A program made the translations under genes and the position numbers. The notes beneath the pieces are model-generated. The model did not search any database, was not told the origin of the DNA, and saw nothing but the letters and a program-made list of their open reading frames with translations. From positions 8,752 through 72,751 of the forward strand of contig DAIF01000001.1 in assembly GCA_002496015.1 (NCBI GenBank): a stretch of 64,000 nt of DNA. The letters run 5' to 3'. This document shows, in pieces, positions 13,647 to 46,739 of the stretch (the stretch's first letter is position 1; every line of letters starts with the position of its first letter). Origin of the DNA: Candidatus Pacearchaeota archaeon UBA73. GTDB lineage: Archaea > Nanobdellota > Nanobdellia > Pacearchaeales > GW2011-AR1.

Positions 13647-13697
13647 TCAAAATCAAAGACGATATCAAAAAGATAAAGGAACAAATTGTTAATTAAC
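13647..13697 (+). repeat. Direct repeat copy 2 (duplicated 3' end of the small-protein gene)
   Basis: ttcaaaatcaaagacgatatcaaaaagat identical to 13015..13043; continues with in-frame similarity to the stop codon; no ATG-initiated ORF. Confidence 0.7.
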
Positions 13698-13751
13698 TAT
13701 TTAGTATTACAAAACTACAAAGTTTAAAAACTCCGACTTCCCAAAAAAACT

Positions 13752-14537: not shown

Positions 14538-14569
14538 CAAAACTTAAATACCTCTTACAATTTCTAAAA

Positions 14570-14832: not shown

Positions 14833-14906
14833 TTAATCCTCATGTACTTAAAATTCTCAACAGGAAAAAACACAAATCCTAAATACTCCTTCCGTCATTT
14901 ATCCGG

Positions 14907-15464: not shown

Positions 15465-15498
15465 TATCATTTAAATAAACCCTAAGCCTAAAAAAAAT

Positions 15499-25897: not shown

Positions 25898-25961
25898 AAT
25901 CCGATTAAATAATGGGAATTAATAAACATTTGTTTAAGCCAATAGCTATTCGTTTAACAGA

Positions 25962-26363
25962 CTAACTAAGTAACACTTCTAGTCTCTTCGGGTCTCTTTT
26001 AATTTCTTTGACGATTGTCGCAGGCCCAATAACTGTCAGTGCTGAATTATCCCCCACTAGTTTTTTAGCAAGGTTATATCTAAATTTCACAAGAAAGCTT
26101 TCATTTTTCAGATTAGGCTCTATCACCGCAAGCTCTATTCCCCTGAAACTTTTTATATGGTCAACCATCGCCATCGTGTCTTCAATCAGTCGCGCCTCTT
26201 CTTCAGGTCGGAGTCTTCCATGCAAAATTACTATCTTATTTCCCAATACCAAAGTTAATATTTTCTTAACCCTTTGGGCAATCGTCAGATCCTGTACCTC
26301 CGAAAATGGCAGAACCTGCAGACTTAACCCCCTATATTTTCCTGATACTTTCTTCTCTATCAT
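25962..26363 (-). CDS. Conserved hypothetical protein co-transcribed with a small GTPase
   Basis: 133 aa, no motif recognised. 4-nt overlap with the upstream GTPase gene. Confidence 0.4.
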   Translation of the reverse strand: MIEKKVSGKYRGLSLQVLPFSEVQDLTIAQRVKKILTLVLGNKIVILHGRLRPEEEARLIEDTMAMVDHIKSFRGIELAVIEPNLKNESFLVKFRYNLAKKLVGDNSALTVIGPATIVKEIKRDPKRLEVLLS

Positions 26364-26998
26364 ACTTTCCTCGCTAGTTTAAACAAAGACTCATAAAATT
26401 CATCCATGTTTATGCCTTCTTTCGCCGAAACTCCCACAACTTCATAATCTGGAAAAGCGCTCTCAATTTTTTTAACATCTGCTTTCTTTAAGTCAACTTT
26501 ATTTCCGACAACCAATACGGGGATTTTTCTCGCCACAAGGTTTCCGATGATTGTGATATTAACTTGCGAGTAAGGGTTCTCAGTAGCGTCCAATATGACA
26601 ATAACCGCATCCACATCATCGAGCCATTTTATCGCTTCAATTATTCCTTGGGTGGCTTCCTTCGCTCTCTTCTTTGCGATCTTTTTTTTCAATCCAAACC
26701 TCAGGAAATTCTCGTAATCGACCCGTGTTGCAATTCCAGGAGTATCAACAAGTTTGAAGGTCATCGTTTTTCCCTTATACTTTATCTCAACTTTCTCTTT
26801 TATCTGGACGTTTCTTGTTTCATGCGGCACTGAACTCACCGAGCCGATTTCTTCTCCTGTCCAGTCTTTGCATATCCTATTCGCTAAAGACGTCTTTCCG
26901 GCATTCGGCGGTCCGTAGAATCCTATCTTGATATTCTCTCTCTTTCGAAATAAACTTCCGAAGATCCTTGCAGAGACTCTTTTCAGTATTTTGAACAT
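26360..26998 (-). CDS. Small GTP-binding protein (P-loop GTPase)
   Basis: G1 GPPNAGKTS, G3 VDTPG, G4 VGNKVDL. 212 aa. Confidence 0.7.
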   Translation of the reverse strand: MFKILKRVSARIFGSLFRKRENIKIGFYGPPNAGKTSLANRICKDWTGEEIGSVSSVPHETRNVQIKEKVEIKYKGKTMTFKLVDTPGIATRVDYENFLRFGLKKKIAKKRAKEATQGIIEAIKWLDDVDAVIVILDATENPYSQVNITIIGNLVARKIPVLVVGNKVDLKKADVKKIESAFPDYEVVGVSAKEGINMDEFYESLFKLARKV

Positions 26999-27003: not shown

Positions 27004-29796
27004 CTATAAATTGGGTCGTTTAATAAATCTTGTGTCTATCGGGCGCCCTCCTTGCTGTTTTTCTAATTCTTTTCTCACCTTTCTGTTTTCTGCAAACTTG
27101 AACAATGGTATCTCCCACATGCCGGTTCTTTTTCCTTCCAGTTTCCTGAACGCATAAGTTATCTGTTCCGAAGTCCACTTCCGCCCACGAAGCGTTTCTT
27201 TTATTGCTGTATCTTTTAGTCCATTCCTTCTGGAGTTGTAGATGAAGTTCAATAAGTTATACAAGTCATTCGAGTTCGGGAAAAGGTGTTTCTCATAATT
27301 ATGTTTGTACCACCATTGTAACAAGAGATAAACCGCTAGAAAGAAAACAAGTATGATGGATAGGCTTATCAGAAACCTTCTCCAAAGAAAATTTCCCTCG
27401 GGATCGCAATTCTCTAACCAACATTTTATAATCGGTCTTGTGTCAATTCCTAAGCTGGAAGGCGGCGGCGAGATATACACACCAAGATTCATTATCCCCG
27501 GAGAACTCGCTCCAACAATCGCGAATTCCGCACTCGTTATCGGCTCCATCTTTATTTCAGCATACGTCCCCCCACTGACACTCGTCTCTCTGAACCTATC
27601 TCCACCGGAAATAAATGTTAATGCATTCTTGGGATATCCTATAACTAAGTACGCAGAATCTGTTTCAGGATCTTTTTTCTCGACAAGAGTTATTTTATAA
27701 GTCTTAAGTATCTCTGTTTCTTGAATCTCGTTTTTCGCAGAGATTGCTTCAAAAGTTATCTGCACATCATAATGTTCCATCATCCAGCCGAACACACTCG
27801 CTTTTAATTCGTCTTCATCAGGCGGCACTTCATCAATCCCTGCTATTTCCATAACATGCGCCATATTAGCCTTTTCATATCCTATTTCTGCCGGCAGAGT
27901 CCCGGTGGCGCTTGTATAAACAGAACTTGGCAGATCAATGCTTAATAAGTCATCTATGATTGAGATGTAACTGCTCTCCGGAGCATTTTCACTCAATGCT
28001 TCAAACTCCTGTTTCTTAGATTGAATAAAAGATTTTTTGGTTTCAATTCCTAACGCGCTGGATAAGATAGTTCTCACTGCAGTTGGATACGTGCTTATAT
28101 CTGATTCTAAGTTTGCTATCCTCGCTTCATAATCTCTCAGGATAAGACTCGCAGAGGTCTTGGCTTCTCCGACTATTACTGTGAACCTTTTCGTTGAATT
28201 TAAGCCAGAACCCCTCACAAGGGTCACTTTGACAGCGTATTCTCCGTCTGATTCAAAGGTATGCTTCACACTTGTCCCTTGAACTGTGATAGGAGACGCG
28301 CCATCTCCAAATTCCCAAATCGAGTGGGTGACATTGACTGCCGACCTCGCCGTGAAAATAGTCTCTCTGCCGATGTATGCAAATCTCGGTGTGACTTCGA
28401 AAGAAAATCCTATGTCCACATCAATAATCTTTTCAATAACTTCTTCTCCTCCTAAAAACAATCTGAACGTATGTTTTCCATCCTCATTTGGGACTTTGAA
28501 ATCCATTTCTTCTACAGGTATCATCGTCCAACCAGTGCTTACTCTTGCAGGCCTTTCTCGTAGTTCATATATCATCGCAGGGTTTTGACTCCGCCTAGTC
28601 CCCGATCCAATTCTATATCCCAATTTTCCGCCATACAATAATTGCCCTTCAGCAGGCATGCCCCAGATGCTGAATGGAATTACGCAACCATCTTCGCCAG
28701 AGCAATTCATACCATAGGTATAGTTAAGGTACTCTGCCACGTCATCTCTCAGATTTCGGTCTGTTATGGTTTCATAGGTATTTCTGTCAAACCTGACATA
28801 ACTTACGCTCTCAAAACCCCTCGGCTTGATAAACAAATCAAAATCTAATTCAAAATCGTCCTTCGATACTCTATCTCCAGGTTCAAACACTAATCCGCAA
28901 GTCTCTCTGTCATCCTCATTTGTATTTATCGTGAAATAGTCAGCAAATCTTTCCTCAGTATAAACACAGACAAGAGCGTCAAATTTCTCGAGCGCAGAGT
29001 GATTTATCACTACAGGAAATTCCGTGCCTACTGAAAGAGGCAGCCCATTTAACCACCCCCCGCCGTAAGCGTCTCCCCCGTCCAAGGGGTACATTGCAAA
29101 TGCTAAATTACCTCCGCTCTTAAGAACATTAATCTTCCCTCCAATTTCATACGATGCCGCAGGAGGAATGTCTTTCATATACTCACAATACAACTCTCTG
29201 CCTATCGGTACATCTCCTTCCGAATCTTCTTCGTCAAAGCATCCACGATTTTTCAAGGTTATCGGATAAAAGACACTTCCGCAGGTTAAAGAACCGGCGC
29301 GGGGTTTTGTGTTGTAATAATCTATTTTACCATCGTCAAACAAATCAATATATATCTGATTCCAACAGGTTTGGCTTACATAGACATCAACCCAAAATTC
29401 CAACTCGTCAAAGTTTGATACGATTCTGTCAGACTCTTTTATTCTAAAACCATAAGTTCTCTTCTCTTCGCCCAACGTTATTCTCTTAGCAGTCTCTCCG
29501 TTTAGTGCAGCATAATAACTTAGGCAACTTACAGGATCGCAAGTATAAGCACTTCCTTTTGTCAGATTCATCGCATTAAAAACATCAAGCAGCCTTATTT
29601 TCTGGTCATTTAAGCTATTAGTGAAATAGACATTTTCTTGTCTGTCAAAGCTCATATTCAAAATGCCTGAAACCACATCCCCTTCTAGGTAATTTCCATC
29701 GATATAAGAAGAGTTTTTTCTGATTGAGAAATCAGCAGCGCTGACTAAGCTTACTGCCAAAAAAAATCCGACTAAAAATAAACTTCCTTTCTTCAT
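27004..29796 (-). CDS. Large secreted surface protein with C-terminal TM anchor and cytoplasmic tail
   Basis: 930 aa. Signal peptide MKKGSLFLVGFFLAVSLVSA; TM FLISLSIILVFFLAVYLLLQWW near the C-terminus. Confidence 0.6.
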   Translation of the reverse strand: MKKGSLFLVGFFLAVSLVSAADFSIRKNSSYIDGNYLEGDVVSGILNMSFDRQENVYFTNSLNDQKIRLLDVFNAMNLTKGSAYTCDPVSCLSYYAALNGETAKRITLGEEKRTYGFRIKESDRIVSNFDELEFWVDVYVSQTCWNQIYIDLFDDGKIDYYNTKPRAGSLTCGSVFYPITLKNRGCFDEEDSEGDVPIGRELYCEYMKDIPPAASYEIGGKINVLKSGGNLAFAMYPLDGGDAYGGGWLNGLPLSVGTEFPVVINHSALEKFDALVCVYTEERFADYFTINTNEDDRETCGLVFEPGDRVSKDDFELDFDLFIKPRGFESVSYVRFDRNTYETITDRNLRDDVAEYLNYTYGMNCSGEDGCVIPFSIWGMPAEGQLLYGGKLGYRIGSGTRRSQNPAMIYELRERPARVSTGWTMIPVEEMDFKVPNEDGKHTFRLFLGGEEVIEKIIDVDIGFSFEVTPRFAYIGRETIFTARSAVNVTHSIWEFGDGASPITVQGTSVKHTFESDGEYAVKVTLVRGSGLNSTKRFTVIVGEAKTSASLILRDYEARIANLESDISTYPTAVRTILSSALGIETKKSFIQSKKQEFEALSENAPESSYISIIDDLLSIDLPSSVYTSATGTLPAEIGYEKANMAHVMEIAGIDEVPPDEDELKASVFGWMMEHYDVQITFEAISAKNEIQETEILKTYKITLVEKKDPETDSAYLVIGYPKNALTFISGGDRFRETSVSGGTYAEIKMEPITSAEFAIVGASSPGIMNLGVYISPPPSSLGIDTRPIIKCWLENCDPEGNFLWRRFLISLSIILVFFLAVYLLLQWWYKHNYEKHLFPNSNDLYNLLNFIYNSRRNGLKDTAIKETLRGRKWTSEQITYAFRKLEGKRTGMWEIPLFKFAENRKVRKELEKQQGGRPIDTRFIKRPNL

Positions 29797-31511
29797 TTTT
29801 TTCTCATGATAGCATAAATCAAAGTGATTAAAATCGCTGCCAAAACCAATCCAACTGTGCCAATAGCTGGCAGCTCAATAACTGTTGGACACTTAATTTG
29901 TGTTTCACAGGGCTGCCCGTCTCCGCAACCCACGTCACAGGTCCAAGTTTCTCCGGGAGGAATGGTCTTTGGCTCAACTCTCACTTTTCTAAATGGGCTG
30001 CTAGGCCCACAATCTTCCAAAACTGTGTAATCTGACCTACAGGTGCGAGTAGAATCGGATGCGGAATTAAAGTAAAAATAACACTCTCCATTGTTTTCAA
30101 TACCGTCGCCCTCATTCTCATCAAAAGCGCAACCCCATCCAGATAACGTCTCCCCGCCATATCCATTGTTCACTGGATCAGATGCACCAGGAACGCAGTC
30201 TTTCATGCAAAGCTCTCTCCTCATCGAATGATTTTTTACATCTCCAACCGACGGGTTTAGCGGATATACCTTGTTATAGTCCTGACAGCTACTTGGTGCT
30301 AACCAGTATTCTCCTTCCTGAAATTCAAACGGTTCATTATCATTACAGAAACCCCCGGAGCCGATACATCCGTCAAAATTGTAAGTACAACTTGAAGTGC
30401 AATTCAAAGTCCCACTTATATAGTCTCCTGCAGTTACGCAAGTCTCGCCCCCAAAATCGCACTCTCCTCCACTGCAATCACATTCTTCTCCTGCGAGCCG
30501 CTCCAATCTCCCATTGCCACATGCCGATTCGCTATTATCTTGCGGACTATCACAATCCAGATCCTCTCCATAATCTATATCCCCGTCGCCATCATTATCT
30601 CTCCCATCCTGACACTGCGAAGTACCGTCAGACTCGTTATTATCTCCAGGATTATAAGTAGATGGATTTGTCTGATCAGTCCAGCATCCTGGATCCAGAG
30701 AATCAGTTAATCCATCGCCATCATCGTCCATAGTATTGCTGCATTGTGCAAAGACGCACCCTGCAGAGTTGAACCGACATTCGTTCGGATGTTCTGGCGG
30801 AAAACATCCAAGAGTCCCGCCGGCAAACGGGCTGTCAGGTCTGAAGGTTGTGCAGTCTCTACCAGATAAATTGGTTCCATCGCACTCTTCGCCAATCTCA
30901 ATCACTCCATCTCCACAGACAGTAACACAATCCGGACAATTTGCTGGAGTTTCTCCGCGCTCTTCATATTCACAGATTCCGTTGTAATTGCATCTGCAAA
31001 TGAATTCCGAACGCGGCTTGCAACAAATTGAATAGTCATAATGTTTAGTAATTGCCAGATGAGCATTCGTATTTCCACTCAATGTGGTAATCATGCAATA
31101 ACCACTGCTTCCTGGCGCCTCATCGCAACTCTTCCCCCCCGTCTGTAAAAAACACTCGAGGTTTCCAAAACACACATCAGTATATTCTGACGTACTGCCA
31201 GCTGGTCCCTCAGCGTGCGCATCAGTAATGCCCGATAACCTCAGGACAGTATTGGTTCCATCGCATAAGTGGGGGTTGCCCCAAGACGGATAAACTCCTG
31301 AGAAATAATCATAGAAACAGATTTCATATGGATAACCTCCGCTCGCATTCCACTGTTCACCATGCGCATTTTGTAATGAACTTATCCTAAACAATCGCTG
31401 CTCACTGCTCGAACAATTTATCATCTCTATCGCGTTCACCCCATAGACAACAAAAAATATTCCTATTACGGCTAAAACTGAAAGGCGGATATACCCTCTT
31501 TTCATTACCAA
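29793..31511 (-). CDS. Cys-rich surface protein with CGDGxxxxxEECD repeats and Asp-rich (Ca-binding-like) repeats; C-terminal TM
   Basis: 572 aa. CGDGVIEIGEECDGTNLSGRDC; DDDGDGLTDSLDPGC; DGRDNDGDGDIDYGEDLDC. C-terminal LPAIGTVGLVLAAILITLIYAIMRKK. Confidence 0.6.
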   Translation of the reverse strand: MVMKRGYIRLSVLAVIGIFFVVYGVNAIEMINCSSSEQRLFRISSLQNAHGEQWNASGGYPYEICFYDYFSGVYPSWGNPHLCDGTNTVLRLSGITDAHAEGPAGSTSEYTDVCFGNLECFLQTGGKSCDEAPGSSGYCMITTLSGNTNAHLAITKHYDYSICCKPRSEFICRCNYNGICEYEERGETPANCPDCVTVCGDGVIEIGEECDGTNLSGRDCTTFRPDSPFAGGTLGCFPPEHPNECRFNSAGCVFAQCSNTMDDDGDGLTDSLDPGCWTDQTNPSTYNPGDNNESDGTSQCQDGRDNDGDGDIDYGEDLDCDSPQDNSESACGNGRLERLAGEECDCSGGECDFGGETCVTAGDYISGTLNCTSSCTYNFDGCIGSGGFCNDNEPFEFQEGEYWLAPSSCQDYNKVYPLNPSVGDVKNHSMRRELCMKDCVPGASDPVNNGYGGETLSGWGCAFDENEGDGIENNGECYFYFNSASDSTRTCRSDYTVLEDCGPSSPFRKVRVEPKTIPPGETWTCDVGCGDGQPCETQIKCPTVIELPAIGTVGLVLAAILITLIYAIMRKK

Positions 31512-31545: not shown

Positions 31546-31974
31546 TCAAATCTCTTTTCTCCACATAAACACCTTTACTTTTTTTGGTTCGACGCTTTCA
31601 TTTTTTATGCTTCCACTTATTACTCTTTCTGAAGAGTATATGTCTTGTTCCGTGTTAGGATAAGGTTCAAGAAAACATACTTCTGTTAGGTTGCATATTT
31701 TCACCGAAATTTCAAACGCAGGGTTTTTAATTTTTGCCTCCAGCGCCAGTTTAAGCTGGTTCTCTAGCACTTCTTCATCTTCTCTCTCTGCGATTTTTTC
31801 TCTGAACGTCAAGTTTCTTGCTAGCTCGTCCATCAGGGGAGGCACTTCTCTGCCAATGTCTCTTCTTTCAGGAATATCTCTCTGAGCAGAGAGGAATACT
31901 AATGCTACTAATATTATTATGACTGCGACCGTGGCTTCAACAATTTTCAAAAATCCTCTTTTGTCCATTACCAT
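31546..31974 (-). CDS. Archaeal type IV pilin-like protein
   Basis: MVMDKRGFLKIVEATVAVIIILVALVFLSAQ: class III signal. Confidence 0.6.
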   Translation of the reverse strand: MVMDKRGFLKIVEATVAVIIILVALVFLSAQRDIPERRDIGREVPPLMDELARNLTFREKIAEREDEEVLENQLKLALEAKIKNPAFEISVKICNLTEVCFLEPYPNTEQDIYSSERVISGSIKNESVEPKKVKVFMWRKEI

Positions 31975-32684
31975 ACTTTCACGATTAGGTCTGCAAAAGT
32001 AACTGAGCCATCTTCTCGCAGAACCTCAACTCTTTTTTTCTCCGAAAATATTTCAAAATTATCCGGAATGGAATTTTCCGCAACTATCGAGTCTCCATTA
32101 TCAAACTCCAACGAAAATCCAAAATCTGCTCTGTCCGGTAGGTTGAAATTACTTTGGCTTTTCAAACCTCTGTAATCTGCATAATAAGCCTGATTTAGCA
32201 TTTTAAACTTTCTTTCAGAAATAACTTCTCTGGCTTCCGAGGAACCTATGCGATAGTATGTTTCATTGTGCTCCGCAGTTTCAGATAATGTGTCCTCTGA
32301 GAATTCCTCTCCAAAGACTACATAGATAAAGTCTTCCCCCACCCAGTTTTGAGAAGAGATATAAATTAATTCTCCGTTTGTCCCTCCTCTGGACGAATTT
32401 AAAATTCTCCCATCATACGTCAGAATAGTCGTATCCCCCGTCACTCCTGAGAAGTTCAGCGCTATCTCGCCGGACATTATTAGCGCACCATTGACATTCA
32501 CGGAAAAAAATTCTAAGCTGGTGCTCGTATTCTTTTCAATCTCCCTGAATGCATAGGAGATTGTTGTGCTCACAATCCTCGTGCCGTCTCCCGAATTAAA
32601 TAAATAAAGTCCGAAACCAACTGCAGTTATGAAAAGCACAAAAGATAATATTACCTCGATATGACTTATCCCTCTTTTCTTCAT
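31968..32684 (-). CDS. Archaeal type IV pilin-like protein (start refined to internal Met)
   Basis: ORF track gives 31968..33011, but the class III signal MKKRGISHIEVILSFVLFITAVGFGLYLF begins at residue 110. The upstream part overlaps the + strand methyltransferase gene. Confidence 0.55.
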   Translation of the reverse strand: MKKRGISHIEVILSFVLFITAVGFGLYLFNSGDGTRIVSTTISYAFREIEKNTSTSLEFFSVNVNGALIMSGEIALNFSGVTGDTTILTYDGRILNSSRGGTNGELIYISSQNWVGEDFIYVVFGEEFSEDTLSETAEHNETYYRIGSSEAREVISERKFKMLNQAYYADYRGLKSQSNFNLPDRADFGFSLEFDNGDSIVAENSIPDNFEIFSEKKRVEVLREDGSVTFADLIVKVW

Positions 32685-32735
32685 AACAAAAAGGCAGCTA
32701 ACTAGATTTATATACATTTTCTTACATCTTGTAAT

Positions 32736-33509
32736 ATGCTTCATGCCAAGATAAGACGCGAAATTATTCTCAAAATCAAGGAGAAAAGAGAACTCGCTGG
32801 TCTGGCAGACAGTGTAGTCGAAAATAATCTGGACGATTTTCTCAGAAAGAATAGGATTTCTCTCGCAGCTCTTTCCGAGAAAGAGAAAAAAATAATAGTA
32901 AAAGAAGTCAGAAGCACACTTCGGCTTCTCGCAGGAAGGTTTCGTAAGAGTGCGAAAAATAAGAATCATACAATTGACTTTGAGAACATCAACGAGCTTC
33001 TTCGCACCCACTCCTCAACAGCCGAAAGATTAAACTTCTATCCCAAATTCAAGGAAAAACTGCTTGAGATGAAGCCTGCCTCAATTCTAGACCTCGGCTG
33101 TGGTCTCAATCCAATCGCGCTCTCTCTCAAGGGAGTGGTTTACTATGCATCAGATATAAATATCAAAGACCTGTCTATTATCTCAGCTTACTTTAAGAAA
33201 CATCGCATAAAAGGCAAGACATTCGTTTTAGATTTACAAAAAATAGACTCTCCCTTACCAAATGCTGACGTTACTTTGTTATTGAAGTTGTTGGATGTGA
33301 TTGACCCAAAACATACGCTCTCAGAAAACATCCTTAATAAGATTCCATCTAAGAGAGTTATAGTGAGTTTCTCGACAAGAAAACTATCAGGTCGGAAAAT
33401 GAATTTCCCGCGCAGATACTGGTTTGAAAAACTTCTCTCAAAGCTTTATTACCATTACTACACGATCGAGACAGACAACGAGATATTCTACTTCATTACA
33501 AAACCCTAA
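32736..33509 (+). CDS. RmtB/ArmA (FmrO)-family 16S rRNA (guanine-N7) methyltransferase homolog
   Basis: 257 aa. HSSTAERL...ILDLGCGLNPIAL and VIVSFSTRKLSGRKMNFPRRYWFE resemble the aminoglycoside-resistance m7G1405 methyltransferases as recalled (HASTKERL...VLDIACGLNPLAL...AVSFPTRSLGGRGKGM..WFE). Recall-based. Confidence 0.55.
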   Translation: MLHAKIRREIILKIKEKRELAGLADSVVENNLDDFLRKNRISLAALSEKEKKIIVKEVRSTLRLLAGRFRKSAKNKNHTIDFENINELLRTHSSTAERLNFYPKFKEKLLEMKPASILDLGCGLNPIALSLKGVVYYASDINIKDLSIISAYFKKHRIKGKTFVLDLQKIDSPLPNADVTLLLKLLDVIDPKHTLSENILNKIPSKRVIVSFSTRKLSGRKMNFPRRYWFEKLLSKLYYHYYTIETDNEIFYFITKP

Positions 33510-34375
33510 GCTGCACCCAGAAACAACCTTGCACCGCTCGAGATTAAAAACGCTGCAATTACCATTATGAAAGAATGTTTAAGCCCGCTCTTTAAACTTC
33601 CCTCGGTCAATTTACCGACAACAAGTCCTATGAAAAACCCCTGCGTTATCAGTAGGTAAAGGAAAGGTGCGCTAAATTGCGAGGCGTCTATTTCTTGTCC
33701 TCCACCGCCAAAAATTCCTATTCCTAAATCCTGCCCCGTAGTCGAAATTCCTCCCAATCCTCCCGCCCCCGCAGTTAGTGGAATAATCTTGAATTCCATG
33801 ACAAGGATTATCCCAATGAATATGAAGAAGATTATATAACCCTGCACTATCAGCCCATACACTGCAGACTTCCTCTCTTTTTTCAGTTTCTCCACCTCAG
33901 CAATGGACTTCGCTGTCGAGTCAAGGATATAGTCTATGTCTCCTCCGGCTTTCTCAGCCTCTTTTATCAGACCAACTGCTCTTTTTACAACTACGCTGTC
34001 AATTTCCTTAGAGAATGTCTTGAGTGCCTCGCTCAGCGGAATACCTAATTCTATCTGATTAGACAATTTCTCTATATTGGGATTGAGAACTCCAAAATCC
34101 TTTCTCTTCATATTAACGATGGCTTTGCTTACAGGCGTACCGGCAGATACAGACTCAGCAAGATTCCTAGTGAACTCTAAGAACATTTCATTAGTTCTCT
34201 CAGACTTTCCGCTCTCAATCGCGATTCCAATGATGAACGGCAGCACAACAACCCCCAGTGCGATGCCTATAAGGAACAACAACATCTGTTGGTTGCTCCT
34301 GAAGAACGCAACATCCAGTGCTATGATTAATACTCCCGCGATTATTCCAAACCAGTGCATTTTTTTTAGTTTCAT
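33506..34375 (-). CDS. FlaJ/TadC-like pilus platform membrane protein, C-terminal half
   Basis: Polytopic membrane protein with a cytoplasmic T2SS-F-like segment (AESVSAGTPVSKAI...). Follows the N-terminal half, separated by a stop and 1 nt. Confidence 0.55.
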   Translation of the reverse strand: MKLKKMHWFGIIAGVLIIALDVAFFRSNQQMLLFLIGIALGVVVLPFIIGIAIESGKSERTNEMFLEFTRNLAESVSAGTPVSKAIVNMKRKDFGVLNPNIEKLSNQIELGIPLSEALKTFSKEIDSVVVKRAVGLIKEAEKAGGDIDYILDSTAKSIAEVEKLKKERKSAVYGLIVQGYIIFFIFIGIILVMEFKIIPLTAGAGGLGGISTTGQDLGIGIFGGGGQEIDASQFSAPFLYLLITQGFFIGLVVGKLTEGSLKSGLKHSFIMVIAAFLISSGARLFLGAA

Positions 34376-34376
34376 G

Positions 34377-35672
34377 TTAGTATGCCGGCTGCTTTATTTG
34401 CAAAAACACCAGGAATATGACATTTAAAACCGCGATGATTCCTACAGCCATAATGCTAAGCTGAGTGGGACCAAACCCCACATTCAATCCTGAAATTGCC
34501 ATCATAACTATCATCAATAAAAATACCATTGGCGCTGCAATGACAATGCTGATATAAATGTCAAGAAACGTTTCGACAAGTCTGGTGTATTTTTCTCTTT
34601 CTAATCTGTATGACAACAGAAGGCTCTCCGCTCTTTTCTCAAAATATTCCGACAAGTTCGCTCCGGATGTTATCGTTACTGAAAGCCCTGCGAACAGTTC
34701 GGCAAGCTTTTCACTCGGAGCAGTTTTTGCGGCATTGTTTAATGCAGTTGTCAGGTCATATCCGTAGAGATTTATCTGATTAAGCACCTTGCGTATTTCT
34801 TTCCTGAGGAAGGGATAATCTCTGCTCAATCCTATGATGCGGAAAATCTCTGTCGGCTCTATTCCCGCACCGGTAATCGCGCTCATATGAATAACTGCAA
34901 AAGGAAGTTCCTGATCAATCCTTGTTCCAAGAGATTTTTTCTCAGTTGAAGGATAATAATAAATCGCCAAAAACGTTAGGATAGGTATAGCTATTGGTAG
35001 CAAGATAAGTTTTGATGCGGCCGCAAGATACCCTGATGTTCTCAACTCCAAAAATGGCCATACTGGTATCGTGCTAAAAAACGTGAAGAACAGCCCCGCA
35101 AAAAACGCAACAACAAAAGCTATCAAAACAGTGAGATATATCATGGCGACATACGATTCAAATAAAATTTCCATATTTGCCTTTCGCAGGCTTTCACCAA
35201 GGTTCCGAAAGCTCCCCTTTCTTACAATCTTGCTAGCTGCGGAAAGAAAAAGCCGATTCGCTAATTTCAGATACCCCCTAGATGCCTTGAACTCCGTGAA
35301 CTTATCTTGCTCTTCTATGTCCCTCAGTTTTATTTTTCTCATGAAGTTATCGCTGATATTCAACTCCTTCAAGAATTTTGCTTTGTCCTTTGAGTGCAGC
35401 ACGACCTCTAATCCCGAGCCAAGTCCGCGGTATTTTACAAGCTCTAACTTCTTGTCCTTGCCCGAAGGGAGCTTCTTTGCCACTGAGATGTCTTTGAGAA
35501 GTGCCAGAGTGTTGTCATTTATTATCCTCATTCCTTCAACGATAGAATTTATCGCGCCGTCTAAAAGTTTCTTCTCATCGTCTGCAGCAGAGTCATATCG
35601 AGCAGCATAGCTCGCAATCTCTCTGAGCATAGATATTTCTGTTTCAATATTTTTCCTAAGCTCGTCTATCAT
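34377..35672 (-). CDS. FlaJ/TadC-like pilus platform membrane protein, N-terminal half
   Basis: 431 aa. Cytoplasmic T2SS-F-like domain followed by TM helices; typical platform partner of the FlaI/TadA ATPase. Confidence 0.55.
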   Translation of the reverse strand: MIDELRKNIETEISMLREIASYAARYDSAADDEKKLLDGAINSIVEGMRIINDNTLALLKDISVAKKLPSGKDKKLELVKYRGLGSGLEVVLHSKDKAKFLKELNISDNFMRKIKLRDIEEQDKFTEFKASRGYLKLANRLFLSAASKIVRKGSFRNLGESLRKANMEILFESYVAMIYLTVLIAFVVAFFAGLFFTFFSTIPVWPFLELRTSGYLAAASKLILLPIAIPILTFLAIYYYPSTEKKSLGTRIDQELPFAVIHMSAITGAGIEPTEIFRIIGLSRDYPFLRKEIRKVLNQINLYGYDLTTALNNAAKTAPSEKLAELFAGLSVTITSGANLSEYFEKRAESLLLSYRLEREKYTRLVETFLDIYISIVIAAPMVFLLMIVMMAISGLNVGFGPTQLSIMAVGIIAVLNVIFLVFLQIKQPAY

Positions 35673-35830
35673 AGCAAATCTTGAATCTGTTTCTGAAAAA
35701 TCATGATTTCTCGTTTTGCAGAATTCAACCTCTCAGCATCTTTGTTCCGCTCGGCAACAGCGAGCCTCTCTACAGCATCTTTCATGGCCGCCAAAAGCTG
35801 AGCTATGACTACAATATCCTCATTTTTCAT
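35669..35830 (-). CDS. Small ORF (53 aa) translationally coupled to the platform gene
   Basis: MKNEDIVVIAQLLAAMKDAVERLAVAERNKDAERLNSAKREIMIFQKQIQDLL. Its stop overlaps the start of 34377..35672 as ATGA. TATA-like tttatatag about 30 nt upstream. Manual translation. Confidence 0.3.
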   Translation of the reverse strand: MKNEDIVVIAQLLAAMKDAVERLAVAERNKDAERLNSAKREIMIFQKQIQDLL

Positions 35831-35909
35831 AAGCTAAAAAGAAAAATCTTGTTTATATAGTTTTCAATTTCTCTGGCTTCGCTAAAACCTCACTTGCGCT
35901 CAAGTTCAG

Positions 35910-37439
35910 TTATTCTCTTATCCCATATCTCTGCAACACTGCGACCGGATTTTTGTGAAACTCGTTCACCACCCACCCGACCTGGTCAAAATCAAATACT
36001 CCTTTGCGATAAAGCGTGTAAAGAAGTTTAGCGCGAGTTACCAAATCCTTGTATAGTTTATCAATAGGCGTTCCGGTGCGCATCGCAATTTTCTCAAGTA
36101 CCTTGCTCTGCTTCTTTGAATAAAAAATATCTTTTCCGGCATCCCACTTGAAAGGTGTATTCACAATCGCAGTTCCATCCGCATTTACATTCACTATCTC
36201 TACAATTTCTCTCACTTTTCTGGTCTCCTGTTTCCCGACGCGTGCATGCGTGGCAACAACTACACAATCTAATGTATTTACCAATGTGGGCGACAAACTG
36301 ATTGGTGGAGTTTGTAATCTTCTGATAAGCGTGTCAACAGAATCAGAGTGCATCGTGCTTATTGAAGAGTGTCCGGAAGCCATGCCCTGAAACAATACGA
36401 ATGCTTCTTTTCCTCTGACTTCTCCCACTATCAAATAGTCAGGAGTCTGCCTAAAAGAAGCTTTTAAAATTTCAAATAAATCTATCTCTCCAACCTTCCC
36501 AACTCCGATCGAAGTTCTCGCAACAGCCGGCAGCCAGTTTTCTCTGGGGAGATTAATCTCGCGGGTGTCCTCGATACTTACAACTCTCGCCTCCGGCGAA
36601 ATGAAAAATGCAAGTGCATTCAGCAAGGTAGTCTTACCTGATGCGGTTCCACCAGCAACGAGAATATTTGATTTATTCTCTATCAACAGCCAGAAATACG
36701 CGAGCATCTCCGGAGACAATGTATTCATCGCAATCAACTGAATCGGAGTCCAGGGAATCTTCGTGAATTTTCTTATTGTAAACGTGGGTCCGCGCGAAGA
36801 AACATCTTTAGTGTAAGTAGCATTAACTCTCGAACCGTCCGGCAGCGTTCCGTCAAGCAACGGCTGTGCATAAGAAACATACCTCCCGGTGCGCTGAGCT
36901 AATTTCTCTACAAAACTCGCGAGTTTGTCTATATCTCTGTAAACTATATTCGTTCTAAGATTTCTGAAAACCCTATGCACAATAAATATCGGTGTGTTCG
37001 CCCCATTGCATTCTATGTCCTCTATAAAATAATCTCGCAGCAAGGGATCTACTTCATTCAGTCCGATAAAATCTCTAAACAAGTAGTAGAATATCTTTTT
37101 GTAACTCTCAGAAGTTATCTTTATATTCAATTCGTCAATCAATAGTCTCGCAGTCTTGTCAATATAGTTCGTCGTGGCTTCAAGCGTGTTTTCAACAGCG
37201 ACGTTGACGTTTATTAGCTCTAGCATTGCCTCTTCGACCCTCGTAAGCAGAGCTTTCTCTTCTTCGGTGAGGATTGGTTCTTCAAGCTCATAAACTAGTT
37301 CATTGATTTTACTATCCCAAAATATATGTGCCGACGCATAAGGCGAAATTAGCATATACCTGACATCAACTCCCCTTTTATCTTTGTAACGTGGAATCGG
37401 CGGAACAGCCGGATTCAAGTTGATCTTTTCAACCATCAA
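35910..37439 (-). CDS. Type IV pilus/archaellum-type assembly ATPase (FlaI/TadA/GspE-VirB11 family)
   Basis: 509 aa. Walker A LVAGGTASGKTT; Walker B/Asp box IVGEVRG; His box. Confidence 0.8.
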   Translation of the reverse strand: MMVEKINLNPAVPPIPRYKDKRGVDVRYMLISPYASAHIFWDSKINELVYELEEPILTEEEKALLTRVEEAMLELINVNVAVENTLEATTNYIDKTARLLIDELNIKITSESYKKIFYYLFRDFIGLNEVDPLLRDYFIEDIECNGANTPIFIVHRVFRNLRTNIVYRDIDKLASFVEKLAQRTGRYVSYAQPLLDGTLPDGSRVNATYTKDVSSRGPTFTIRKFTKIPWTPIQLIAMNTLSPEMLAYFWLLIENKSNILVAGGTASGKTTLLNALAFFISPEARVVSIEDTREINLPRENWLPAVARTSIGVGKVGEIDLFEILKASFRQTPDYLIVGEVRGKEAFVLFQGMASGHSSISTMHSDSVDTLIRRLQTPPISLSPTLVNTLDCVVVATHARVGKQETRKVREIVEIVNVNADGTAIVNTPFKWDAGKDIFYSKKQSKVLEKIAMRTGTPIDKLYKDLVTRAKLLYTLYRKGVFDFDQVGWVVNEFHKNPVAVLQRYGIRE

Positions 37440-37466
37440 AGAAAAAAACGAACTATTTATTTAAAA

Positions 37467-38003
37467 CTATCTTCTTGAGGTTTCTTCTATGTCTATTTGG
37501 GGATATGGCTGTCCTCCAAGATTTCTTATAGAAAATGAATAAGCCGTTGACGCCGCAGTAAACTTTCTATTCTGATCCGACCCCCCATAAGTTATGTTTG
37601 TGATATTCTTATAATTCAAAATCAATACAGTATAAGCAGATTTCTCAGTTTCATATGAAGTAATGCGGACGTTTCCCTCTCTGATTTCAAATCCTACTTC
37701 TGAATACGGCTTGCTCAACCCATCAACTACAAAGATTATCTCGTCGCTGGTGGAATTGATTAATAATTCTCCTCTTTTCATCGTGAAAGCAGGGATGTTC
37801 CTCACATTGCCCTGGCCCCTATCAATTAATTCTCCAATACGTTCATCCCAAACGCTGAACGATTTAATGGTCTGCTCGACCAGAATCCTATCTCTGGACT
37901 CGTTTATCCTCGGGGTCGTAATAGCTAACACAATTCCTATCAGAGCTATCCCCATCAGCGTATACAAAACCGTTTCTATCCAGACTTGTGCCTTCTTGTT
38001 CAT
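37467..38003 (-). CDS. Archaeal type IV pilin-like protein
   Basis: Start refined to MNKKAQVWIETVLYTLMGIALIGIVLAI (ORF track 37467..38033). Confidence 0.5.
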   Translation of the reverse strand: MNKKAQVWIETVLYTLMGIALIGIVLAITTPRINESRDRILVEQTIKSFSVWDERIGELIDRGQGNVRNIPAFTMKRGELLINSTSDEIIFVVDGLSKPYSEVGFEIREGNVRITSYETEKSAYTVLILNYKNITNITYGGSDQNRKFTAASTAYSFSIRNLGGQPYPQIDIEETSRR

Positions 38004-38590
38004 TAGACCTCCAAAGCCACGCCCGGCTCGCAATAGATTCCTTTAATTCTCATTTTATCAGTCTGCGCGCATGTTCTATCATTCTTCAAAACAGGATAAA
38101 TCTCTATCATATCAAACTCAACGCTCGAATTATATACATAGGTTTTCACCCCACCCCTTTCAGGAAGAGTCAATGTCGAAACAGCTCGGTTTAACATTCT
38201 CATCTCTCCGACATTGTTGCCTGCAGTTGTGCCATTACGAACCTCGAATCCAACATCTTCTCCTCCGCCAAGAAATTGTATCTTTAATGCATTTATGTTC
38301 TCAAGCTTTTCAGCAGGCACAGTGTCTGCTTCTATAGACAAAGCATAGATGTAGTTCCCGCCTTCTATTTGATAACAATTATACTCAAACTCTTCATAAA
38401 ATAAAAAATAGTCCTCATACCCCAAACACTCCGTCCTCTCGTTTAATATATTCTGTACTAGAGGCACGACAAATCCCATTATAAGCACTGCGGCCGCAAC
38501 CGTTATTAAAATCAGAACAACGGTAGCCACAATAGAGGATATTCCCTTTCTATTAAACATATTCCGTACTGATACCATAGTCTGCATCAC
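38003..38590 (-). CDS. Archaeal type IV pilin-like protein
   Basis: NRKGISSIVATVVLILITVAAAVLIMGFV: class III signal. Confidence 0.6.
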   Translation of the reverse strand: MMQTMVSVRNMFNRKGISSIVATVVLILITVAAAVLIMGFVVPLVQNILNERTECLGYEDYFLFYEEFEYNCYQIEGGNYIYALSIEADTVPAEKLENINALKIQFLGGGEDVGFEVRNGTTAGNNVGEMRMLNRAVSTLTLPERGGVKTYVYNSSVEFDMIEIYPVLKNDRTCAQTDKMRIKGIYCEPGVALEV

Positions 38591-39068
38591 AAATATAAGA
38601 CAGTCTTTTCTGCTCTGTCTCTCCCAATAGGATCGGAACCGCGATTATTGTGTCTCCAGGACTTGCTCCCGAAGGAAGAGCGAAAACTCTCGTCTCTCCT
38701 GATTTAATTCCGTCGCCAGTTTGGCCGATTTCTTTTATTTCTCCCTTGCCCCTCACCCTCATTTCAACTGCCCAGATCGGAACGTCTCCGATATTATTTA
38801 CTGTCAGGTTGCCTCTTCTAGCTTCCATTAGAAATTCAACATCGTCGCATGACATCTCAATCGCACGTTCGTTCTTTTCAATAGTCTCAGCAATAAAACT
38901 TCTTGCCCAAAAGAATACTATCACTGCAAGGATTATTGTAATTGAGACTAACAGAGTTGTCGCAACGACCGGAGAAATACCTCTTTTCCCGCCCAACAGG
39001 AAAGGGAAAGCACAGGTGGCTATGCCACCTCTTTTCTTTAGAGCAGTCATGAATTTAAATGACTTCAA
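38553..39068 (-). CDS. Archaeal type IV pilin-like protein
   Basis: GKRGISPVVATTLLVSITIILAVIVFF: textbook class III signal. Confidence 0.6.
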   Translation of the reverse strand: MKSFKFMTALKKRGGIATCAFPFLLGGKRGISPVVATTLLVSITIILAVIVFFWARSFIAETIEKNERAIEMSCDDVEFLMEARRGNLTVNNIGDVPIWAVEMRVRGKGEIKEIGQTGDGIKSGETRVFALPSGASPGDTIIAVPILLGETEQKRLSYICDADYGISTEYV

Positions 39069-39088: not shown

Positions 39089-40075
39089 CTATTTTGTGCG
39101 CTGGATGTATTCATAAGCCGAATGTGCGGCAGTGCATCCTTCCGCAACTCCCGTGATTGCTTGTTTGAACGGCTTGTCTGCAACATCCCCTGCCGTAAAA
39201 ACTCCGGGAACGTTAGTACTAGAATCTTTATGATTCATTATGATTTCACTTCTCTCGTTCAACTCAACTCCTATTTCCCTTGCCAATCCCGAAAGAACTT
39301 CATGCCCTATAGCAACAAAAACCCCATCAAGTTTCAACTCCTTGTTTCCATCGTATTCTCTGTCCAAAACAACCCCTGTCACAAAATCTCCCCCCTTTAC
39401 CTCTACAACATTTGCATTGTTTATGATTTCTATCTTCTCATTCTCTTCAATTCTTTTCAGATTTATCGGCTCAGCTCTTATCTTCTCTTTTCTATATATA
39501 ATATAAACTTTCTTCGCATGTTCTGCCAAGACTAAAGCGTCTTTAGCCGCGCTGTCAGAGCCGCCGATTACCGCCACAGTCTTATTCCTGAATAAAGGCC
39601 CGTCGCACAAAGCACAATACCCTATCCCCCTATTTTCAAATTCTCTGCCCCCTTTTACTTCCTCAGGCAACTTTTTCCATTTTGTCCCTGTGGCAAACAA
39701 AATCGTCTTCCCAAAATATTCTCCTTTAGCAGTTTTCACCTTAAAGCTCTTGCCCTCTTTCAAAACTTTCTCAACTTTCTCTTCCTTTATTTCAACAAGC
39801 TCATAACTTCTTGCGTGCTTTTCAATTTTTTCCGCAAGTTCACTTCCCGATAATCTCTCAAATCCCGGATAGTTTTCAACAATGTTCGTCGTTGTTATCA
39901 CGCCCCCCACCGGCATCTCGCTCCCATGCGAACTTCCCAAGACCAAGGTCTTTAATCCAAGCCGCGCCCCATACATCGCAGCCGCCAAGCCCGCAACTCC
40001 TGCTCCTATCACAATAAAGTCATATCCTTTTTCCATAACCACAAAAAAAGAGATGATTATATAAATATTTGTCAA
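39089..40075 (-). CDS. trxB: Thioredoxin-disulfide reductase
   Basis: FAD motif DFIVIGAGVAGLAAA; redox-active CALCDG; NAD(P)-binding GGSDSA. Confidence 0.8.
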   Translation of the reverse strand: MTNIYIIISFFVVMEKGYDFIVIGAGVAGLAAAMYGARLGLKTLVLGSSHGSEMPVGGVITTTNIVENYPGFERLSGSELAEKIEKHARSYELVEIKEEKVEKVLKEGKSFKVKTAKGEYFGKTILFATGTKWKKLPEEVKGGREFENRGIGYCALCDGPLFRNKTVAVIGGSDSAAKDALVLAEHAKKVYIIYRKEKIRAEPINLKRIEENEKIEIINNANVVEVKGGDFVTGVVLDREYDGNKELKLDGVFVAIGHEVLSGLAREIGVELNERSEIIMNHKDSSTNVPGVFTAGDVADKPFKQAITGVAEGCTAAHSAYEYIQRTK

Positions 40076-40560
40076 CTCCGACGCTCATGGACATGAATCT
40101 TGAAACCCACTTAAAGAAACATAATATCTCCTTCATAGAGTACAATCACCCGGCAGTCTTTACAGTCGAAGAATCCAAAAAACTCAAACAATCTATCCCC
40201 GGAATGCAGTGCAAATGCCTTTTTCTTAAAGACGAAAACGAAAAATTCTATCTTGTAGCACTGCCTGCATTAAAGCGTCTTAACACAAAAAATCTTCGCT
40301 CAATTTTAGGCGTAAAGAAACTAAACTTTGGCTCCCCTGAAGAATTAAAGCAGCGTCTCAACTTGACTCCAGGTTCCGTTTCAATTTTCGGTATGATTTA
40401 CTCGACAAACGTTGTTCTAATTATTGACAAAGAAGTCTGGGACTCTTCCTCGTCAGGTTTCCACCCCAACCTAAACACATCAACACTGGTGATTTCTCAC
40501 GAAGGTCTTAAAAAATTCTACAACTCTCTGAACTCTGAAAAACGAATCCTTGTTTTATGA
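40069..40560 (+). CDS. YbaK/ProX-family aminoacyl-tRNA deacylase (candidate)
   Basis: 163 aa. Pattern K.L.LK......YLV.LP...RL..K.L....G.K.L....PEE matches the YbaK/ebsC fold by recollection. Confidence 0.45.
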   Translation: MSTPTLMDMNLETHLKKHNISFIEYNHPAVFTVEESKKLKQSIPGMQCKCLFLKDENEKFYLVALPALKRLNTKNLRSILGVKKLNFGSPEELKQRLNLTPGSVSIFGMIYSTNVVLIIDKEVWDSSSSGFHPNLNTSTLVISHEGLKKFYNSLNSEKRILVL

Positions 40561-41288
40561 AAAGAAAATTTGCCCTACTGATCTCTCTGCTGCTCACCCT
40601 CTTAGTGGCTTCAAACATCTTCCTTTTTAATTTGGGCTCTCAAAGAAAGACAGTTTACGTTGTCAGAGTCATAGACGGAGACACCTTTGAATCTGACCAA
40701 GGTACATTAAGACTGGCAAACATAAACACTCCGGAGAAGTCCGAGAAGGGGTATGAAGAAGCTAAACTCTTCATATCGAGATTTCAGGACTCAGAAGTTC
40801 AGATAGAGGAACTCTCTACTGACCGGTATGGCAGAATTCTCGCAAGAGTCTATACTCCGGATTACTTGAATCTGGTTCTGGTCAAACAGGGGCTGGCAAG
40901 AAAATTTCTCGTTCATGAGTCCGAACTTTCTCTTTTCGATGTCGCTGAGAAAGATGCTGTCAATTCAGGCAGGGGATTGTGGAAACACTCCTCGCTCTAC
41001 AACTGTTTTGAAGTTAGTATCTTCCCTTCAGAAGAAATTCTGCAAATCGAAAACAAGTGCGGAGAAACTAATATGGGCGGCTTCGTTATCACAGACGAAA
41101 GCAGAAAAAAATATAAGTTCCCAAATATTATCTTAAGGAAGATAACGCTGCACACAGCCTCGGGAATTGACAACAGCTCGGATTTGTTCTGGGGTAGCAA
41201 CGGCGATGTCTGGAACAATGATCGCGACACAGTTTATATCTTGGACGCAGAAGGCAGACTTGTATATCATCGCTCTTACGGCTATTAG
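40557..41288 (+). CDS. Secreted staphylococcal-nuclease-like thermonuclease with C-terminal extension
   Basis: Signal/TM LLISLLLTLLVASNIFL; SNase motif VIDGDTFESDQGTLRLANINTPEK...DRYGRILARVY. Confidence 0.65.
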   Translation: MKRKFALLISLLLTLLVASNIFLFNLGSQRKTVYVVRVIDGDTFESDQGTLRLANINTPEKSEKGYEEAKLFISRFQDSEVQIEELSTDRYGRILARVYTPDYLNLVLVKQGLARKFLVHESELSLFDVAEKDAVNSGRGLWKHSSLYNCFEVSIFPSEEILQIENKCGETNMGGFVITDESRKKYKFPNIILRKITLHTASGIDNSSDLFWGSNGDVWNNDRDTVYILDAEGRLVYHRSYGY

Positions 41289-41971: not shown

Positions 41972-42472
41972 ATGGCAAAGATAGAAGCTTCGTTAATCCT
42001 CGAAATTCTCGGAAGACCGAAAGAGAATGTCTCTGCTGCTATGGAAACTTTGATAAATCGTTTGTCGTTGGAAAAGGGAGTTAAGGTGTTAAACAAGACT
42101 CTTCACGAACCTGTGCCGGTTGAGAAATCAGACCTATTCACTTCATTCGCTGAAGTCGATGTCGAGCTGGACTCCTTTATGACTTACGTAGCGGTCATCT
42201 TTGGGCATATGCCTTCCAACATTCAGATTACCTCTCCGGAAAAAATGACCCTTAACAACATGGAACTTAACGAGATTGGAAATGCTCTGGTTCAGAGATT
42301 GCACCATTACGATGCTGTGACTAAAAATGTCCTTGTCGAAAGAAACTTTTATGCAAAAAAGCTTCAGGAAATAGCTCCGCATCTTTTCATAAAACAAGGG
42401 CCTGCTCCTGCACAAGAGAAAACCCCTCCCAAAGATAAACCAAAAAAATCAAAGAAGTCTAAGAAGAATTAA
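41972..42472 (+). CDS. Hypothetical protein with Lys-rich C-terminal tail
   Basis: 166 aa, no motif recognised; ends in PKDKPKKSKKSKKN. Confidence 0.4.
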   Translation: MAKIEASLILEILGRPKENVSAAMETLINRLSLEKGVKVLNKTLHEPVPVEKSDLFTSFAEVDVELDSFMTYVAVIFGHMPSNIQITSPEKMTLNNMELNEIGNALVQRLHHYDAVTKNVLVERNFYAKKLQEIAPHLFIKQGPAPAQEKTPPKDKPKKSKKSKKN

Positions 42473-46717: not shown

Positions 46718-46739
46718 CTCTTTTTTAGGCGTAAGTTGT

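Follow-up and report, generated by a model that had tools for sequence, protein, structure and literature searches.

Pacearchaeota are uncultivated, metabolically minimal archaea, and a gene cluster from this lineage raises the question of whether they build a filament on their surface and, if so, what it might be for. The cluster occupies positions 31546-39068 of a 64,000-nucleotide (nt) stretch of contig DAIF01000001.1 (Candidatus Pacearchaeota archaeon UBA73). This whole stretch is called the window here; the locus and its flanks were studied, and positions are those of the window unless a relative is named. An earlier note had described the cluster as a type IV pilus-like locus. Our analysis points with good confidence in the same direction: in a Pacearchaeota-type DPANN archaeon, the cluster provides both the assembly machine and the subunits for an archaeal type IV pilus, also termed a type IV filament. 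The organism is of the DPANN type, its closest relatives carry the label Pacearchaeota, and the neighbouring genes (proteasome, FttA, Rad50/Mre11, TrmB, SecY and OapA/B/C) are archaeal in kind. In the table of open reading frames (ORFs), the minus strand carries, in order of transcription, three pilin candidates (P1, P2 and P3), an ATPase, a 53-amino acid (aa) protein (s53), a platform protein in two parts (PlatN and PlatC), two more pilin candidates (P4 and P5) and two large surface proteins of 572 and 930 aa. All ten minus-strand ORFs named in the earlier note are present where it had placed them, and profile searches assigned the ATPase and both membrane ORFs to the FlaI/TadA and FlaJ/TadC families, respectively.

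The ATPase (35910-37439, minus strand) belongs to the FlaI/GspE/TadA type of secretion and assembly ATPases, as the earlier note had proposed. This was shown by T2SSE and FlaI profiles and by its motifs: the protein matched Pfam T2SSE at 1.7e-29 (103 bits; cut-off 24.9), FlaI was the top model in NCBIfam (3.1e-118), and the catalytic motifs are intact, with Walker A reading GGTASGKT and the Asp box, Walker B and the His box all in place. Its closest solved structure is the GspE of A. fulgidus (2OAP; 1.1e-112, nearly full length), followed by Sulfolobus FlaI (4II7/4IHQ; ~1e-81) and bacterial CpaF (2e-45). Both archaeal ATPases share the motifs of the window protein and match it over nearly the full length; however, they are single characterised proteins from loci that differ, and FlaI drives the rotating archaellum. 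An archaellum, i.e. a rotary motility filament, might be read from the locus as well, given that the top NCBIfam matches were the FlaI and FlaJ models. Neither model reached its equivalog cut-off, however (FlaI 396 against 550 bits, FlaJ 92 against 550), the ATPase is nearer to A. fulgidus GspE than to FlaI, and no homologue of FlaH, FlaF, FlaG, FlaC/D/E or FlaX was found among the neighbours. Based on these low scores and the lack of archaellum accessory genes nearby, the archaellum reading was rejected; we give it next to no chance.

If the locus encodes a pilus, the ATPase would need a membrane platform, which the earlier note had recognized as two ORFs. Both contain one T2SSF domain (cut-off 25.2 bits). 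PlatN (34377-35672, minus strand) carries it at 1.4e-15 (57.8 bits) together with transmembrane (TM) helices, and PlatC (33506-34375, minus strand) at 5.7e-16 (59.1 bits) with five predicted TM helices. When aligned to FlaJ (length 555), PlatN covers positions 41-248 and PlatC positions 265-445; because these are distinct stretches of FlaJ, the two proteins are halves of a single platform and not copies of one half. The N-terminus of PlatN is a conserved cytoplasmic extension of approximately 170 aa that precedes the T2SSF domain. At the junction of the two genes the sequence reads TAA-C-ATG, leaving a gap of a single nucleotide.

Relatives of the locus were found by scanning one genome per species, and PlatN relatives occurred in 318 genomes. 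In the best 80, all of them metagenome-assembled genomes labelled Pacearchaeota, Woesearchaeota or Nanoarchaeota, the match spans essentially the full length of PlatN. The best 120 PlatN homologues are 51-100% identical and 400-458 aa long (nearly all 430-446 aa), with a T2SSF domain in every one. We fetched 83 related loci (the 80 best relatives plus three extra copies of relatives among those 80; labelled L001 and onwards), called their ORFs and, with the proteins of the window as seeds, made jackhmmer profiles to search these ORFs. The 1-nt gap between PlatN and PlatC is kept in 45 of these loci. The order P1-P2-P3-ATPase-s53-PlatN-PlatC-(reverse-strand methyltransferase)-P4-P5-(variable large protein)-PKD protein recurs in essentially every one of the 83 loci with sufficient flanking sequence, and independent gene calls and Pfam marks agree with it. 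Since they recur in 80 related genomes, the split platform, s53 and the gene order are not artefacts of assembly.

A two-part platform with no peptidase gene nearby might also suggest a decaying locus that no longer works. The evidence speaks strongly against this: the identical split is found in at least 80 species, all catalytic motifs are intact, and the locus proteins are under purifying selection where this could be measured (ratio of nonsynonymous to synonymous substitution, dN/dS, of 0.02-0.13; most dN/dS values were unusable since dS was saturated). Moreover, a platform made of two proteins, EpdJ and EpdK, is functional in M. maripaludis (PMC4371748). The broken-pseudogene reading was therefore rejected on the strength of the conserved split, intact motifs and purifying selection, and we consider it very improbable. 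Archaeal systems of Clade 1, and many of Clade 2, have likewise been reported to carry two TadC-like genes per locus (PMC4858521), and a 2026 survey records two platform genes for System 1, which includes DPANN members, and for subsystem 4A of some DPANN archaea (bioRxiv 10.64898/2026.04.22.720090). The two-gene platform is thus already known for archaeal pili, including those of DPANN archaea, and the locus does not represent a new kind of machine.

What is not described for these systems is s53 (35669-35830, minus strand), a soluble, charged protein without a TM helix that was recognized by its conservation. The earlier note had listed it as a small coupled ORF, and it does overlap the platform start by 4 nt (ATGA). 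This overlap is present in 59 loci, and s53 itself was found in 80 of the 83, mostly at 53-57 aa, with the consensus (M.kE.i...AQLL..mkd...kle.a..kkD.e....aKkEil.fQ..i..ll.). A search of 1.84 billion representative proteins yielded 87 clusters of s53 homologues, all of 45-87 aa, and in none of these clusters was s53 fused to another protein. No Pfam or NCBIfam profile matched it. Its dN/dS is ~0.10 (against L005), and it is presumably helical. On the basis of this conservation, we regard s53 as a real, clade-restricted accessory protein. One relative (L003, 59% identity) has a PIN-domain toxin-antitoxin pair separating the ATPase from s53 (9002-9686 of that locus), and s53 remains joined to the platform gene despite this insertion upstream. 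The same relative carries a MazE/PIN pair just upstream of the pilins.

With the motor and platform identified, we were interested in the subunits. Archaeal class III signals are defined by a charged residue at -2, a G, A or S at -1 and a hydrophobic H-domain, and the conserved N-termini of P1-P5 agree with this definition. A simple class III regular expression was found to be unspecific; motif conservation was instead assessed for each alignment column, using 56-81 orthologues of every family. In this way a conserved class III-type cleavage motif was seen in all five candidates (a slash marks the predicted cleavage site below). The earlier note had called all five pilins, and this stands in full for P1 and P2, which pass a family model; P3-P5 reach no model and show the [KR][GA] motif with a hydrophobic helix.

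P1 (38553-39068, minus strand) is an archaeal Pilin_N-type prepilin and the candidate major subunit. It matched TIGR02537, a model of archaellin and pilin N-termini, at 3.1e-7 (29.8 bits; cut-off 20) and scored 24.7 bits with Pfam Pilin_N, slightly below the cut-off of 25.2. Its likely start is the ATG at 39050, cleavage is predicted after G30 of the ORF (KRG/ISPVVATTLLV), and the motif across 81 orthologues is K-[RK]-G/[LV]SPVIATVLL. P2 (38003-38590, minus strand; TIGR02537 5.2e-7, 29.1 bits, cut-off 20) is a paralogue of P1, which it matches by BLASTP at 1e-5 across the N-terminal 63 aa. It likely starts at the ATG at 38560 (MFNRKG/ISSIVATVVL), and the motif K-[RK]-G/xSxV[VI]ATVL is kept in 64 of 70 orthologues. 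The leader of P1 was also found to carry an in-frame insert of 48 nt (38979-39050, minus strand; MTALKKRG-GIATCAFPFLLGG-KRG/ISPVV), with AAAAGAGGT direct repeats on both sides and a GGTGGC-ATA-GCCACC hairpin inside. At the same place in P1, the closest relative (L001, 6510-6634) has a 48-nt tandem array of 2.6 copies with 98% matches, in which the KRG motif is repeated; a similar insert lies in the leader of P2 in L040 (7102-7200). Most orthologues have no such insert.

The other three candidates are pilin-like proteins recognized by the conservation of their motifs. P3 (37467-38003, minus strand; MNKKA/QVWIETVLYTLMG) is a candidate minor pilin with a single N-terminal TM helix and the motif [KR]-[GAS]/Q[VI]WIETVxYTLIG; Gln at +1 and Glu at +5 are found in 46 of the 56 orthologues with a detected site. 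P4 (31968-32684, minus strand; MKKRG/ISHIEVILSF) has the motif K-[RK]-G/xSHIEVILSF, with His at +3 in 65 and Glu at +5 in 68 of 72 orthologues. It is the largest pilin-like protein within the locus itself. Its AlphaFold model (pLDDT 86.7) predicts a helix at residues 8-29, a short break, a second helix at 34-53 and a beta-rich globular domain, an architecture that is pilin-like in that an N-terminal helix is followed by a globular beta domain. P5 (31546-31974, minus strand; MVMDKRG/FLKIVEATVAVIIIL) has the motif K-[KR]-G/xL[RK]IVEA, with Glu at +6 in 60 of 65 orthologues and two invariant cysteines, C94 and C100. An hhalign comparison of P3 with P4 gave an alignment confined to the N-terminal 32 residues. 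Thus, P3-P5 are taken as putative pilins from their motif and its conservation, and in the case of P4 also from its predicted structure. A Gln at +1 combined with a Glu at +5 marks EppA-type substrates (PMC4371748); P3 has both residues and P4 has Glu at +5 only.

Several results weigh against reading the locus as a pilus system with associated surface proteins. First, the simple class III motif rule matches 42 of the 185 ORFs in the window and is unspecific by itself. Second, no Pfam or NCBIfam family model reaches its cut-off for P3, P4 or P5, their profiles found nothing under an E-value of 0.1 among PDB sequences, and in a structure comparison the globular domain of P4 resembled no solved pilin fold. 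Third, no class III signal peptidase (A24) was found in the 64-kb window, where Pfam was not run on every ORF, nor did any of the 83 loci have a GxGD membrane ORF up to 10 kb from the cluster, the rest of the genome being outside the search. Finally, gene order alone ties the surface proteins to the pilus weakly because synteny in this clade is generally high.

Regarding the peptidase, the earlier note had reported that no such gene is in the window, and this holds as far as multi-TM ORFs were inspected: apart from the two platform proteins, these amount to a truncated SecY and a nine-TM protein at 22444-23364. Archaeal peptidase genes are often unlinked. The nine-TM protein (22444-23364, plus strand; 306 aa) contains LYDMYAV, GGGD and PAMP motifs and is the sole candidate for a GxGD-type intramembrane protease in the window; it gave no Pfam, A24 or PDB sequence match. 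We take its motif order, YD...GGGD...PAM, to be that of presenilin and signal peptide peptidase (SPP). Based on this presenilin/SPP-like order, its nine TM helices and the missing A24 match, it was rejected as the prepilin peptidase.

To the earlier note the apparatus looked complete, which our data do not show: the peptidase is missing and two of the pilin genes lie 22 kb away. These two genes, which had been overlooked, encode X185 (14907-15464, plus strand; MNKRG/QFFLLAAVV), a class III signal protein identified by the position of its orthologues, and X312 (15499-16437, plus strand; NKRG/VSLMVGYALLIVIA), a P1-type pilin paralogue that jackhmmer groups with the P1 family and that, at 312 aa, exceeds P4 in length. 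In 16 distant relatives the order is X185-X312-P1-P2-P3-ATPase, i.e. both genes stand directly upstream of P1. Since they are within the cluster in these relatives, the ancestral cluster would have encoded seven class III proteins, two of which moved by 22 kb in this lineage. X185 and X312 are thus assigned to the same system as P1-P5, their status as putative pilins following from motif and conservation. Of the EppA-type residues, X185 has Gln at +1 only; P1, P2 and X312 have neither. The mature length of every pilin here is at least 136 aa.

Distant relationships of the minor pilins were also sought. Weak, sub-threshold but mutually consistent matches linked P3 orthologues to DUF7289 (7 of 37, best 1e-3), P4 orthologues to DUF7285 (6 of 30), P5 orthologues to DUF7288 (2 of 38) and X185 orthologues to DUF7261 (6 of 16, best 3e-4). 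No orthologue from the window system exceeded the Pfam gathering threshold, which is 27 bits for all four families; the best E-values were 3e-4 to 0.02 and the matches were mostly N-terminal. No mention of DUF7285, DUF7287, DUF7288 or DUF7289 was found in the literature that was searched. Three of the matched families recur in a haloarchaeal PilB-PilC locus on a plasmid of Halobaculum halophilum (NZ_CP058531.1; L084), where a Pilin_N pilin stands upstream, the ATPase and platform follow, and several small class III-like proteins come next. The five genes after the ATPase-platform pair (12914-16291) correspond to DUF7287, DUF7288, a weak DUF7261, DUF7266 and DUF7289; DUF7288 and DUF7289 are significant, DUF7261 is sub-threshold at 22 bits, and DUF7285 was not seen in this locus. 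The N-termini of these proteins, e.g. RAQAHTLE and ERAQMFLIGG, are class III-like. The Halobaculum ATPase is ~40% identical to that of the window. It differs in being 989 aa long with extra domains, and the platform is one fused gene of 679 aa, unlike the split platform of the window. As a lead and not as proof, these matches suggest a distant relationship between the pacearchaeal minor pilins and the euryarchaeal set of Makarova et al. (PMC4858521).

The locus is also split by a gene that the earlier note had omitted. An FmrO/Rmt-like homologue of 16S rRNA (m7G1405-type) methyltransferases is encoded at 32736-33509 on the plus strand (Pfam 8.4e-19; NCBIfam 6.3e-35), convergent with PlatC, with an end overlap of 4 nt, and divergent from P4. 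Its score of 121 bits is well below the 250-bit cut-off of the resistance-gene equivalog. The gene is at exactly the same place in 68 of the 83 loci and absent in six (L063, L069, L072, L078, L081 and L083), in which P4-P5 come straight after PlatC. Because P4-P5 adjoin PlatC where the methyltransferase is missing, P4 and P5 are part of the pilus cluster and the methyltransferase is an interloper.

Are the two large surface proteins part of the system as well? The earlier note had described both as Cys-rich. This is correct for the 572-aa protein (29793-31511, minus strand), which has 44 cysteines by composition, a signal at its N-terminus and a TM anchor at its C-terminus. It does not apply to the 930-aa protein (27004-29796, minus strand), which has 12 cysteines and is a PKD-domain type I membrane protein whose ectodomain is a beta-sandwich; it has a single TM helix, and its cytoplasmic tail of ~90 aa is highly conserved. 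It is possible, and deserves to be taken seriously although we do not favour it, that the system consists of the core genes only (pilins, ATPase, s53 and platform) and that both surface proteins are unrelated neighbours kept in place by general synteny. The housekeeping genes on either side (thioredoxin reductase, tRNA-editing protein, OapA/B/C and the CCA enzyme) are equally syntenic in the closer relatives, and neither surface protein has a class III signal, both instead having a signal of the Sec type and a C-terminal TM anchor. The slot of the 572-aa protein is, moreover, variable and not that of a conserved partner: in relatives it is empty or holds up to four large ORFs (0-4) of 165-1055 aa, and a match to the 572-aa protein was found in the slot in 15 of 39 loci. 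The PKD protein behaves differently. Its gene is still found beside P4-P5, on their downstream side, in distant loci that lack the thioredoxin reductase and Oap flanks (e.g. L057, L063, L065, L067 and L070), and from P4 to the PKD gene the window has a tight co-directional string with gaps of at most 34 nt and one 4-nt overlap. A link of the 930-aa PKD protein to the pilus is therefore supported.

Other genes near these surface proteins were also recorded. An OapA-like GTPase, OapB and OapC (origin-associated protein families; 25511-26998, minus strand) form a tight co-directional string after the PKD protein and are syntenic in ~28 relatives. Two more large surface proteins are encoded at 42469-44340 and 44342-46777 (minus strand), with weak matches to DUF4215 and DUF7107 (Cys-rich repeat). 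The former is a paralogue of the 572-aa protein, as the jackhmmer profile of the 572-aa protein also finds the orthologue of this first protein in L001.

The upstream regions suggest how the cluster is divided for transcription. The TATA-like box TATATAAA occurs as an exact copy only three times in the whole window, each time 21-22 nt before a likely start codon. One copy (35852-35859, minus strand) is 21 nt before the ATG of s53 and would be an internal promoter; another (32707-32714, minus strand) is 22 nt before the ATG of P4 and would be the promoter of a downstream unit. A TTTTTAAA box is found 21 nt before the ATG of P1 at 39050. Among the distinct upstream regions of orthologues, 31 of 45 for s53, 33 of 54 for P4 and 27 of 59 for P1 have an A/T box that ends 20-21 nt before the start. 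Taken together with standard archaeal promoter geometry, this fixed TATA-box distance suggests three near-leaderless units, the first running from P1 to the ATPase, the second comprising s53, PlatN and PlatC, and the third P4, P5 and the surface proteins. A scan for sigma-70 promoters and intrinsic terminators gave results at chance (31 against 29.3 and 12 against 9.1, respectively) and is inapplicable to archaea. The third exact copy (40058-40065, plus strand) precedes by 21 nt the in-frame ATG at 40087 in a gene for a tRNA-editing-domain protein, which suggests that the real start of this gene is downstream of the TTG at 40069.

Which of the known filament systems does the locus resemble most? 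System 1, the Epd pilus of M. maripaludis with EpdL and the platform proteins EpdJ and EpdK, is similar in having one ATPase, two platform genes and several class III proteins. The EppA-type residues of its pilins, Gln at +1 and Glu at +5, give a mixed picture here, with both in P3, the Gln in X185, the Glu in P4 and neither in P1, P2 and X312. However, the hallmarks of System 1 are the EppA peptidase, a major pilin of ~70 aa, a DUF2341/PilY-like adhesin and a MinD-type ATPase (PMC4858521). Neither EppA, a MinD/FleN ATPase, a DUF2341/PilY-like adhesin nor a ~70-aa major pilin lacking a globular domain was found in the window neighbourhood or the related loci, and the predicted model of the 930-aa PKD protein shows no propeller and no PilY-like fold. 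Subsystem 4A, recorded in some DPANN archaea, resembles the window locus in having accessory genes downstream of the platform; its features include pilins of arCOG11238/arCOG06117 and a PilY-like adhesin (bioRxiv 10.64898/2026.04.22.720090). Neither s53 nor the PKD membrane protein has been described for System 1 or 4A.

Bacterial systems offer further comparisons. The Tad/Flp pilus (CpaF/TadA, TadB and TadC) likewise has two platform proteins with a single T2SSF domain each and a related ATPase, and its role is adhesive. In contrast, the window locus has no Flp-type short pilin, secretin or TadZ/TadG set, and the Tad system includes an outer-membrane part that has no bearing here. Type IV pili of Saccharibacteria and other members of the Candidate Phyla Radiation (CPR) serve an ultrasmall episymbiont in host binding (PMC11623550) and may, purely by analogy, be a functional counterpart. 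They differ in consisting of bacterial PilB/PilC/PilT proteins with retraction ATPases.

Instead of a long adhesive pilus, the same machine might build a short pseudopilus or an apparatus that takes up DNA, nucleotides or other substrates, comparable to a competence pilus or a bindosome. DPANN archaea rely on scavenged building blocks, and archaeal type IV filament machines have been proposed to display binding proteins (bioRxiv 10.64898/2026.04.22.720090). A membrane-anchored or secreted nuclease with SNase and lamin-tail domains, which could bear on DNA scavenging, has its gene on the opposite strand (40557-41288, plus strand), at a distance of 1.5 kb upstream of the cluster, and is syntenic in 33 relatives. 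Nevertheless, this nuclease is gone from the neighbourhood in distant loci that retain the pilus genes. The ATPase scores 228 bits with the bindosome model BasE, far under the cut-off of 1000, and BasF reaches 23 against 1300; the Ups equivalogs were similarly not matched (UpsA 25.5 against 130, UpsF 46.7 against 400 bits). An uptake device is thus unlikely. A role of the filament in attachment to surfaces or host cells is plausible and would be its most likely function.

Based on these observations, a working model of the type IV pilus can be proposed, which follows the standard scheme for type IV filaments. Prepilins would be inserted in the membrane and cut after [KR]-G by a class III signal peptidase encoded elsewhere, and PlatN and PlatC would pair to form a two-domain platform. 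A hexameric ATPase would dock on the cytoplasmic domains of this platform, possibly via s53 and the N-terminal extension of PlatN, and drive polymerisation; s53 may thereby couple platform and ATPase. P1 and P2, with X312, would form the shaft, and the Glu-bearing P3, P4 and P5, with X185, may be minor pilins, either priming assembly or located at the tip. An adhesin or anchor function might fall to the conserved PKD membrane protein and to whichever surface protein fills the variable slot. We can speculate further that the seven-pilin cluster is the main host-attachment organelle of Pacearchaeales, that the swap-in slot between P5 and the PKD gene sets host range, that the PKD tail couples an adhesin module to the motor, and that the prepilins may be cut without a canonical A24 peptidase, e.g. 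by the presenilin-type GxGD candidate at 22444-23364; this combination, however, is doubtful.

Size fractionation indicates that Pacearchaeota appear strongly host-attached, and the same groundwater study reported type IV pilus components as missing from DPANN genomes (bioRxiv 10.1101/2020.05.14.094862). Given the presence of the window locus, the statement that DPANN archaea lack type IV pili fails for the archaeal pilus type. The locus is a candidate for their host-attachment organelle. Our analysis provides a clade-wide cluster and a list of its parts: an ATPase with its platform of two genes, the 53-aa protein as a putative partner, seven proteins of class III and the PKD membrane protein. 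Three candidate promoters and a variable slot for surface proteins complete the picture. These parts, the candidate promoters and the slot are targets for metatranscriptomics, proteomics, antibodies and cryo-electron tomography.

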